28,490 bases of DNA from IMG/VR virus record IMGVR_UViG_2585427739_000003; one strand, 5' to 3'. The notes beneath the pieces are model-generated. The model had not been told where the DNA came from. It worked only from the letters and a program-made list of their open reading frames with translations, and searched no databases. Positions 18,842 to 19,232 of this stretch are shown piece by piece (the first letter of the stretch is position 1; every line of letters starts with the position of its first letter). The position numbers and the translations under genes are program-made. The DNA comes from a virus. Taxonomy: Duplodnaviria > Heunggongvirae > Uroviricota > Caudoviricetes.

Positions 18842-18915
18842 CGCGCTGTACTGGATTCGAACCAGTGACCGATTGCTTAGAAGGCAATTGCTCTGTCCGG
18901 CTGAGCTAACAACGC
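18842..18915 (-). tRNA. tRNA-Arg (anticodon UCU), 3' CCA not encoded
   Basis: Hand-folded cloverleaf: 7-bp acceptor stem GCGTTGT/ACAGCGC, GTTCGAATCC T-arm, anticodon loop CTTCTAA. Resembles the argN/argO tRNAs of lambdoid Stx phages. Confidence 0.75.
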
Positions 18916-19015
18916 TGAATACCGATAATGGACCGCCATCGGGGACCCGCCCCCGCACCAACAACCCTGTTATCGTGTCGTCTGCTCTTCCTGATAAGCT
19001 AATGGCGGTTTGTGA

Positions 19016-19091
19016 TGGTGGCCCTTGCTGGATTTGAACCAGCGACCTGGCGATTATGAGTCGCTCGCTCTCACCACTGAGCTAAAGGGCC
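19016..19091 (-). tRNA. tRNA-Ile2-like (anticodon CAU), with encoded CCA
   Basis: GGCCCTTTAGCTCAGTGGTGAGAGCGAGCGACTCATAATCGCC...GGTTCAAATCC...GGGCCACCA resembles E. coli tRNA-Ile2 (ileX) and the ileZ tRNA of Stx phages. Confidence 0.8.
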
Positions 19092-19120
19092 GGGAGCAGA
19101 ATAATAACGGTCCGTAATTA

Positions 19121-19147
19121 ATTCCGCAATAAAAAACCCGCTCGGCG
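19121..19147 (-). terminator. Candidate tR' terminator downstream of the late promoter
   Basis: Minus strand reads AACCCGCCGCCGAGCGGGTT followed by TTTTTTATT, about 90 nt downstream of the Q stop. Confidence 0.5.
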
Positions 19148-19149
19148 GC

Positions 19150-19232
19150 GGGTTGTAGAAACTCTTCTAACGTCAGGCATAAAAAGCCCATTGTTATGAC
19201 GAATTTACCACAGATTCCGGAAAAATCAACCT
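19150..19232 (-). promoter_or_regulatory. Candidate late promoter pR' / qut region
   Basis: Minus strand TTGATT, 16-nt spacer, TAAATT between the Q stop and the tR'-like hairpin. Position and hexamers only; no experimental support. Confidence 0.35.

Follow-up and report, generated by a model that had tools for sequence, protein, structure and literature searches.

A late-gene layout of the Stx-phage type, without a toxin gene, in a lambdoid E. coli prophage sequence

The stretch of viral DNA analyzed here, 28,490 nucleotides long and referred to below as the window, very probably contains the ordinary late-gene control region of a non-toxigenic lambdoid E. coli prophage that works much as in phages lambda and 933W. 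The late-region phage genes lie on the minus strand and are read from high to low coordinates. The first-pass annotation of this DNA had recognized the late regulatory layout of Stx phages with the toxin left out, and this view is confirmed. The Q antiterminator gene, the late promoter pR', the terminator tR' and the tRNA genes are each supported by homology, and alignment of the Q-to-holin interval with Stx phages, which had been proposed as a check, revealed two Stx2 phages with the same type of Q that are colinear with the window. Three amendments to that annotation are a relic of the tRNA gene argN, a separate promoter for the tRNAs, and a point mutation as the source of the missing CCA in the tRNA-Arg gene.

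The arrangement is not novel, because it has already been annotated in 933W and is widespread. The same locus, as exact DNA, is annotated and present in hundreds of E. coli genomes, including those of ST131. Of 5426 complete E. coli genomes, 878 contain at least 80% of the 3.1-kb Q-to-holin interval, which shows 100% identity in the pig strain NT1F25 and 99.9% identity in ST131 strains such as EC958 and JJ1887. The argN relic, which is very common and unannotated, is the sole mildly new item.

The observations reported below are of sequence features, homology, colinearity, conservation patterns and codon counts, and from them we infer start sites, pausing, antitermination, and the expression and maturation of the tRNAs at this locus. 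Homology and conservation are the basis for the proposed pR' start, pause and Q-binding site and for the proposed activity of the tRNA promoter pT. In the mechanism that emerges, Q would be made from the early rightward operon, and pR', which starts 5 nt past the Q stop codon, would fire constitutively. RNA polymerase would pause soon after initiation because sigma70 re-binds the -10-like AACAAT in the initial transcribed region. Without Q, transcription would terminate at tR', leaving a short RNA analogous to the 6S RNA of lambda and to StxS. Q positioned on the promoter spacer would load onto the paused polymerase, and the Q-loaded polymerase would pass tR', the STnc100 terminator and every other downstream terminator, so that the Q-modified late transcript would extend over the cargo, lysis and structural genes. 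A portable tRNA module with its own promoter pT would lie between tR' and the cargo; it would consist of ileZ (reading AUA), a dead argN relic and argO (reading AGA), and it would add AUA and AGA decoding. The argO gene would have lost its encoded CCA by a C-to-T change and would need the host CCA-adding enzyme to function. Finally, the slot that holds stx in sister phages would here be taken up by an orphan gene and a TciB-like gene. The features are listed in Table 1.

Table 1. Features of the late control region and the genes downstream, in the direction of late transcription
Feature	Coordinates	Strand	Basis or remarks
Q antiterminator gene	19235..20056	-	273 aa; PF03589, 7UBM, PHROG
pR'	19202..19229	-	-35 TTGATT 19229-19224; -10 TAAATT 19207-19202
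pR' spacer, candidate Q-binding element	19223-19208	-	16 nt; near-invariant in relatives
Putative pause element, AACAAT then GGG	19187..19195	-	lambda register; -10-like, sigma70
tR' intrinsic terminator	19129..19154	-	hairpin AACCCGC-CGCCGA-GCGGGTT then T run; terminator scan
pT, proposed sigma70-type promoter of tRNA array	19101..19129	-	TTGCGG-17 nt-TATTAT; 933W annotation, conservation
tRNA-Ile2(CAU) = ileZ	19016..19091	-	ARAGORN, Rfam; CCA encoded
argN relic, tRNA-Arg(UCG)	18929..19008	-	80 nt; alignment to intact argN of Stx2_EH1910, EC08, 933W
tRNA-Arg(UCU), argO-like, reads AGA	18842..18915	-	ARAGORN (18841-18915), Rfam
Cargo ('moron') slot	18172..18830	-	659 bp; holds stx2AB in colinear Stx2 phages
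Orphan gene	18375-18701	-	108 aa, conserved core about 92 aa; phrog_2873
TciB-like DUF3927 gene	18208-18339	-	43 aa; PHROG match
STnc100 prophage small RNA	17953..18142	-	Rfam RF02076, 131 bits, E=5.6e-29
STnc100 own terminator	17983-17962	-	terminator scan
IraM-like anti-adaptor gene	17592..17927	+	NCBIfam NF007393, 162 bits vs cut-off 121; annotation
DUF1737 ORF, N-terminal nanS-p esterase remnant	17144..17347	-	67 aa; Pfam PF08410
Lysis cassette: class II holin (16621-16836), YdfR/DUF1327, lysozyme, Rz, Rz1	15211..16836	-	Pfam, PGAP

Q, the late promoter pR' and the terminator tR'

The gene upstream of the tRNAs had been called a lambda-type Q, and the homology searches agree: the protein matches Pfam PF03589 (E=6e-55), the lambda Q structure PDB 7UBM (E=3.6e-40) and a PHROG family named 'anti-termination protein Q-like'. 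Residues 1-113 align to lambda Q 1-113 and residues 182-273 to lambda Q 116-207. Between them is a 68-aa insertion (residues 114-181) with an extra DnaJ-like CxxCxGxG zinc motif. The C-terminal Cys4 zinc site is present, with aCkdC and dCqrC aligning to rCrdC and eCgrC of the lambda protein. The window protein is a QuuQ-like long form of the lambda Q family. A cognate late promoter with a pause element, followed by a terminator, was found immediately downstream of the gene by alignment, a unique pattern match, a terminator scan and conservation.

The late promoter of the window reads TTGATT, a 16-nt spacer, TAAATT, a 6-nt gap and AACAAT-GGG. In the alignment, lambda pR' reads TTGACT, a 17-nt spacer, TAAATT, a 6-nt gap and AACGAT-GGG, the lambda sequence in the register of the pause element being AACGATGGG. 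The pattern TTGAYT-N16/17-TAAATT-N6-AACRATGGG has a single match in the window, at 19187-19229 on the minus strand, and no match in any of 100 shuffles; because it was composed after both the lambda and the window sequences had been viewed, this match demonstrates uniqueness in the window and not independent discovery. A generic promoter scan with a 9-of-12 threshold flagged neither pR' nor pT between Q and the tRNAs, and pR' was missed because it matches the consensus at 8 of 12 positions.

Across 120 related viral contigs, both pR' hexamers and the spacer are almost invariant, in contrast to the variable end of Q and first transcribed bases. The pause element occurs in relatives as AACGAT, AATGAT, AATAAT, AACTAT and AAAGAT, with A at position 2 and T at position 6 always kept. 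This is the pattern of conservation that would be expected of a Q-binding spacer and a sigma70-dependent pause signal, as in lambda, and the start of transcription (+1) is predicted at about 19195. The candidate pR' that had been noticed downstream of Q is therefore well founded in the lambda alignment, the unique pattern match and the conservation among relatives.

The tR'-like terminator noticed in the same reading was recovered by both the terminator scan and RNA folding. The scan placed it at 19154-19135 on the minus strand, with a 7-bp stem containing 5 G-C pairs and a T run after it, and the fold of 19128-19196 contains the same hairpin (overall MFE -18.2 kcal/mol). Most relatives retain the CCCGC/GCGGG stem, with variation found mostly in the loop. 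An RNA that starts at pR' and ends at tR' should be about 66 nt long. Two Rfam matches of this pR'-tR' RNA were rejected for lack of significance, one to Trp_leader (25.5 bits, vs a cut-off of 41), which is driven by the similarity between terminators, and the other to isrK (13 bits, E=2.7).

The tRNA module and its proposed promoter

Across the 28.5-kb window, ARAGORN made two tRNA calls and no more, tRNA(cat) and tRNA-Arg(tct), and the Rfam tRNA model scored them at 72.5 bits and 68 bits, respectively (E ~1e-14). Both of the tRNAs first read from the sequence are thus predicted by two tools, as a tRNA gene finder had been suggested to decide. The CAT tRNA is 100% identical to ileZ of 933W, 92.1% identical to ileY and 89.5% identical to ileX of K-12, and 70% identical to metT/metU (elongator tRNA-Met), and NCBI PGAP annotates it as tRNA-Ile. 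Its acceptor stem, GGCCCUU/AAGGGCC, is that of ileY and includes the C4-G69 and C5-G68 pairs, which are determinants for TilS; the acceptor stem of metT differs, with U4-A69 and A5-U68. The body of this tRNA is accordingly of the ileX/ileY type and not of the Met type, as its earlier designation tRNA-Ile(CAU) required, and the CAU anticodon is predicted to act as an AUA decoder after lysidine modification.

The second tRNA matches argO of 933W at 72 of 74 positions and folds into a cloverleaf with a UCU anticodon, and these features together with the ARAGORN call and the Rfam score uphold its assignment as tRNA-Arg(UCU). The 3' end consists of ACAGCGC and the discriminator G, followed by CTA (18841-18839) and not CCA, so that the absence of an encoded CCA had been read correctly. 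To our knowledge, an encoded 3' CCA is universal in E. coli tRNA genes, and tRNA 3' maturation in E. coli normally relies on it. The argO genes of mEp460, three E. coli genomes, Stx2_EH1910 and 933W encode CCA, and that of EC958 (ST131) ends in CTA. Relative to the closest relatives examined, the missing CCA appears as a single C-to-T change.

One might suppose that the tRNA-Arg of the window is a non-functional pseudogene, its CCA end no longer being encoded. That reading is possible, if somewhat doubtful. The gene differs from its closest relatives examined by the one C-to-T change and adjoins another dead tRNA, and only a minority of E. coli genomes has the CTA allele (roughly 208-269 of 5426 contain its exact 81-mer). 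However, the remainder of the tRNA is intact, as the score of 68 bits reflects, and the same CCA-to-CTA change has an independent origin in an stx-carrying phage locus (L082), which suggests that the change is tolerated. Furthermore, the CCA-less tRNAs of phage T4 are matured by the E. coli CCA-adding enzyme and RNase BN, so that E. coli is able to add a CCA end or to repair one. Another argO allele shows a compensatory change in the T stem, which was counted as constraint on argO. The preferred reading is that argO would depend on the host CCA-adding enzyme, and the CTA end may leave the gene poorly functional or non-functional in this lineage. A 95-aa open reading frame on the plus strand (18750-19037) runs antisense to the tRNAs, is without family support and was treated as spurious.

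The layout as first described implied that the tRNAs lack a promoter of their own and are made only when Q-modified polymerase passes tR'. They do follow tR' immediately and share its strand, and the promoter proposed here, pT, has a weak -35 and falls below the 9-of-12 threshold of the generic promoter scan. Dependence on Q alone is nevertheless unlikely. The proposed pT overlaps the T run of tR' with its -35 and stops 9 nt short of tRNA-Ile. In 112 viral loci, representing 28 distinct upstream sequences and at least 4 unrelated contexts, the TTG of the -35 is kept, the -10 TATTAT is invariant at 4 of 6 positions and near-invariant at the other 2, and the distance to the tRNA is fixed, while the 17-nt spacer and the flanks vary. 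The 933W annotators named the same block 'pT; putative tRNA promoter'. In addition, dRNA-seq of O157 Sakai mapped a primary start site driving the tRNAs to this location, between tR' and stx2AB (PMC7547250). With a promoter of its own, the tRNA array need not depend on Q, and the tRNAs are probably expressed without it. By the same token, genes in the cargo slot could receive some Q-independent transcription in lysogens.

The most likely role of the two tRNAs is to provide for AUA and AGA decoding in downstream genes that are rich in those codons. The NT1F25 prophage is not identical to the window, since it carries IS3 and IS66 insertions, and codon counts were therefore made on the window's own open reading frames. 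The lysis and cargo genes (from the tRNAs to terminase) contain 17.9 ATA and 14.8 AGA per 1000 codons, vs 5.4 ATA and 5.0 AGA in the structural genes (Fisher p = 0.0003 for ATA and 0.003 for AGA). The E. coli genome averages in published codon tables are about 4 per 1000 for ATA and about 2 per 1000 for AGA. Neither codon is abundant in the structural genes, which account for most of the late transcript, and the codon-supply argument therefore mainly covers about 950 codons. Part of the ATA excess comes from iraM, which is on the other strand, and with this share and the small sample the codon counts support codon supply without proving it.

Phage tRNAs are also known from other systems to replace host tRNAs that have been destroyed, and the main role of the present pair might likewise be to make good the losses caused by anticodon-nuclease defences or colicins. 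The neighbouring TciB-like gene is annotated 'resistance to colicin', and the lack of ATA and AGA enrichment in the structural genes would fit such a role. This explanation is nonetheless improbable, given that ATA and AGA are enriched three-fold in the immediately downstream genes, and that both anticodons match the rarest E. coli codons, as codon supply predicts.

The 100 nt between the two called tRNAs contains the argN relic. When aligned with 933W, Stx2_EH1910 and several E. coli genomes, the window block corresponds position for position to ileZ-argN-argO; pT, ileZ and argO are present and homologous, and argN is a relic that no tRNA finder recognises, being uncalled by ARAGORN and by Rfam even at E<=10. 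The earlier statement that only two tRNAs are present therefore stands for functional tRNAs but fails to the extent that a third survives as a relic between them. The relic keeps the acceptor stem, D arm, T stem and CCA of intact argN, but 27 nt of unrelated sequence stand in for the anticodon arm and variable region, and the T loop has become GCGGGT. The possibility of a real tRNA was rejected. In place of an anticodon arm, the substituted segment forms a hairpin whose loop has 3 nt, its fold is no better than that of shuffled sequence (z = -1.25), and a common G-to-C variant in the hairpin is uncompensated. Viral contigs in IMG/VR include mosaic intermediates, some pairing the new anticodon region with an unaltered T arm and others showing the opposite combination.

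The relic occurs in 1827 of 5426 complete E. coli genomes, with at least 99% identity in about 1040, and it is unannotated in the E. coli genome records among the matches listed. Annotation pipelines thus overlook a very common tRNA relic, and the ST131 strain EC958 carries the CCA-less argO allele. It is highly improbable that the relic is a processed tRNA-like RNA with its own function (for example as a processing spacer for the neighbouring tRNAs, a decoy for a tRNA-binding enzyme or toxin, or a small regulatory RNA), a reading prompted by its presence in about a third of the complete E. coli genomes and by the tRNA parts that it retains. Allele diversity did not separate the relic from intact tRNAs.

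The cargo slot and the genes downstream

No stx gene follows the tRNAs, as had been stated from the first inspection: tblastn with Stx2A and Stx2B across the window found nothing better than E=0.35, and the slot is filled by other genes. In Stx2_EH1910 and the viral contig L035 alike, homology to the window is lost at 18831/18830 and picks up again at 18171, with stx2AB lying between these points. The orphan gene in the slot belongs to a family of 23 clusters, of which the named ones are all from E. coli or Shigella and are all 'hypothetical', and a homologue with 59% identity keeps the reading frame open. Pfam and NCBIfam searches with the orphan gene gave no match. Its AlphaFold model (pLDDT 74) consists of a helical hairpin and a small sheet and has no structural match in the PDB at E<=0.001. 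The TciB-like gene beside it encodes a very small membrane protein.

The toxin-free state is the common one among phages with the tRNA module, not the exception. Among 120 sampled viral loci with the module, stxA starts at +258 from argN in 15, and roughly two dozen have phrog_2873 starting at +305 to +309 (about +308); the remaining loci mostly carry other cargo or are cut off. Put the other way, 105 of the 120 contigs are without stx in the flank covered, with some loci cut off.

The prophage could in principle be a former Stx phage from which stx was deleted, so that the region would be a decayed toxin locus. On either side the slot is flanked by sequence homologous to that of Stx2 phages, the breakpoints being sharp, and there is decay nearby in the form of the argN relic, the change from CCA to CTA and the truncated nanS-p. 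This history is nevertheless quite improbable. The slot is filled with 659 bp of unrelated sequence whose two reading frames reappear in many viral contigs at an unchanged offset, phage mEp460 has the same cargo, and stx itself is found in 15 of the 120 sampled loci. The difference from Stx phages looks instead like a cassette exchange, which could have run either way. The window illustrates cleanly that the cargo slot occupied by stx is open to exchange and has fixed breakpoints, one directly behind argO and the other directly ahead of the STnc100 region, and most phages with this tRNA module carry cargo other than stx in that slot.

Beyond the slot, homology with Stx phages resumes at the STnc100 region. 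The prophage small RNA STnc100 is common near the esterase genes of Stx phages (bioRxiv 10.64898/2026.05.13.724894). The IraM-like gene opposes late transcription and occupies the same position in Stx2_EH1910. In Stx phages, the nanS-p esterase gene follows stx; the DUF1737 open reading frame of the window has 86% identity over 74 aa to the N-terminus of the YjhS/NanS-p protein of Stx2_EH1910, and PGAP flags it as a partial gene. The lysis-cassette part of the window is 99.8% identical to the NT1F25 prophage. After Rz/Rz1 come iss/bor genes, which are shared with Stx phages.

Comparison with known phages

Phage lambda shares with the window the Q family, an identical -10 (TAAATT), a similar -35, a pause element followed by GGG at the same register, and a short terminated transcript, which is predicted for the window. 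The lambda Q protein is without the 68-aa zinc-motif insertion, and the spacer (the Q-binding element) differs. The 6S RNA of lambda is 194 nt in length, vs the ~66 nt predicted for the window RNA, and lambda has no tRNAs or cargo before S.

Phage 933W (NC_000924) has the same order of elements as the window, along with an identical ileZ, the closely matching argO, the pT block and, downstream, a class II holin, lysozyme, Rz/Rz1 and bor/iss. Its record annotates pR', qut, tR', terminators, pT, ileZ, argN, argO, stx2AB, the esterase, S, R, Rz and bor. The Q protein of 933W, in contrast, has 157 aa (273 aa in the window) and is annotated as similar to the Q proteins of H19B and DLP12. Phage 933W also differs in its intact argN, its stx2AB genes, its full-length nanS-p esterase gene and its CCA-encoding argO.

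The Stx2a phage Stx2_EH1910 (LC567834) and L035 (IMG/VR 2713897056_000002) have a 273-aa Q of the QuuQ type with about 88-89% identity to that of the window, as well as the pR'-tR' region, the tRNA block and, downstream, the iraM and nanS-p region. They differ from the window in having stx2AB in place of 18172-18830 and an intact argN. From Q through argO, L035 and the window form one uninterrupted colinear block, with no insert, whereas Stx2_EH1910 has a 1.5-kb insert with a DNA methylase gene between tR' and pT.

The functional phage mEp460 (LR597641) is a relative with 99.1% identity from Q to DUF3927, including the argN relic and the same cargo as in the window; it differs in its argO, which has the CCA, and in the genes between DUF3927 and the holin. 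The prophage of EC958 (ST131) matches the window at 99.9% over the whole Q-to-holin interval and shares its CTA end.

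The argN relic and its neighbouring tRNA alleles

Between the two called tRNAs lies a relic of argN, the tRNA-Arg(UCG) gene (Table). Of 5426 complete E. coli genomes, 1827 contain this relic, and among the records listed it carries no annotation. Mosaic intermediates of the relic occur in viral contigs. In 8 of the IMG/VR viral loci that have the relic in place of intact argN, one argO allele differs on both sides of the T stem in a compensatory way (CACTGG/CCAGT becomes CAGTGG/CCACT), and this is evidence that structural constraint acts on argO. Elsewhere, an stx-carrying phage (IMGVR_UViG_2667527592_000004) has an argO that ends in CTA rather than CCA, a change that arose independently, and its array includes an ileZ-derived tRNA with anticodon CGT rather than CAT.

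Small RNAs and genes around the tRNA segment

The short RNA predicted between pR' and tR' coincides exactly with an insignificant Rfam match to Salmonella isrK (19131-19195, minus strand; 13 bits, E=2.7), which serves as a lead only. The STnc100 small RNA has its own terminator; the 42-aa "partial hypothetical" CDS (17998-18123, plus strand) that overlaps it in the annotation of the pig E. coli strain NT1F25 is probably spurious. In the nanS-p remnant the catalytic part is deleted.

The orphan phrog_2873 gene is not called by PGAP in near-identical genomes. Its conserved core begins with the residues VNIDE, and therefore the GTG at that point may be the true start, giving a product of about 92 aa. 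Modelling predicts a helical hairpin, for which no structural match was found.

Features of the window
Feature	Position	Strand	Remarks
iss/bor serum-survival lipoprotein gene	14886-15179	+	opposite to late genes
DUF1737 ORF	17144-17347	-	N-terminal 74 aa of nanS-p sialate esterase
IraM-like anti-adaptor gene	17592-17927	+	opposite to late transcription
STnc100 prophage small RNA	17953-18142	-	Rfam, 131 bits
STnc100 terminator	17983-17962	-	
Orphan gene, phrog_2873	18375-18701	-	
argN relic	18929-19008	-	80 nt
hokD/sok toxin-antitoxin pair	21934-22258	-	
DicF RNA with dicB	28026-28440	+	

Comparison with related phages

The IraM anti-adaptor stabilizes RpoS. ATA accounts for 6 of the 111 codons of the iraM-like gene, and in the Stx2a phage Stx2_EH1910 (LC567834) an IraM-like gene lies beside stx2, in the same position as in the window. 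The early region belongs to the Qin/Kim type of cryptic prophage, and the iss/bor gene occupies the usual position of bor in lambda. The otherwise near-identical NT1F25 prophage differs by IS3 and IS66 (ISEc23) insertions relative to window positions ~7220-10620, the latter splitting its portal gene, whereas the window lacks both insertions and retains an intact portal ORF of 408 aa.
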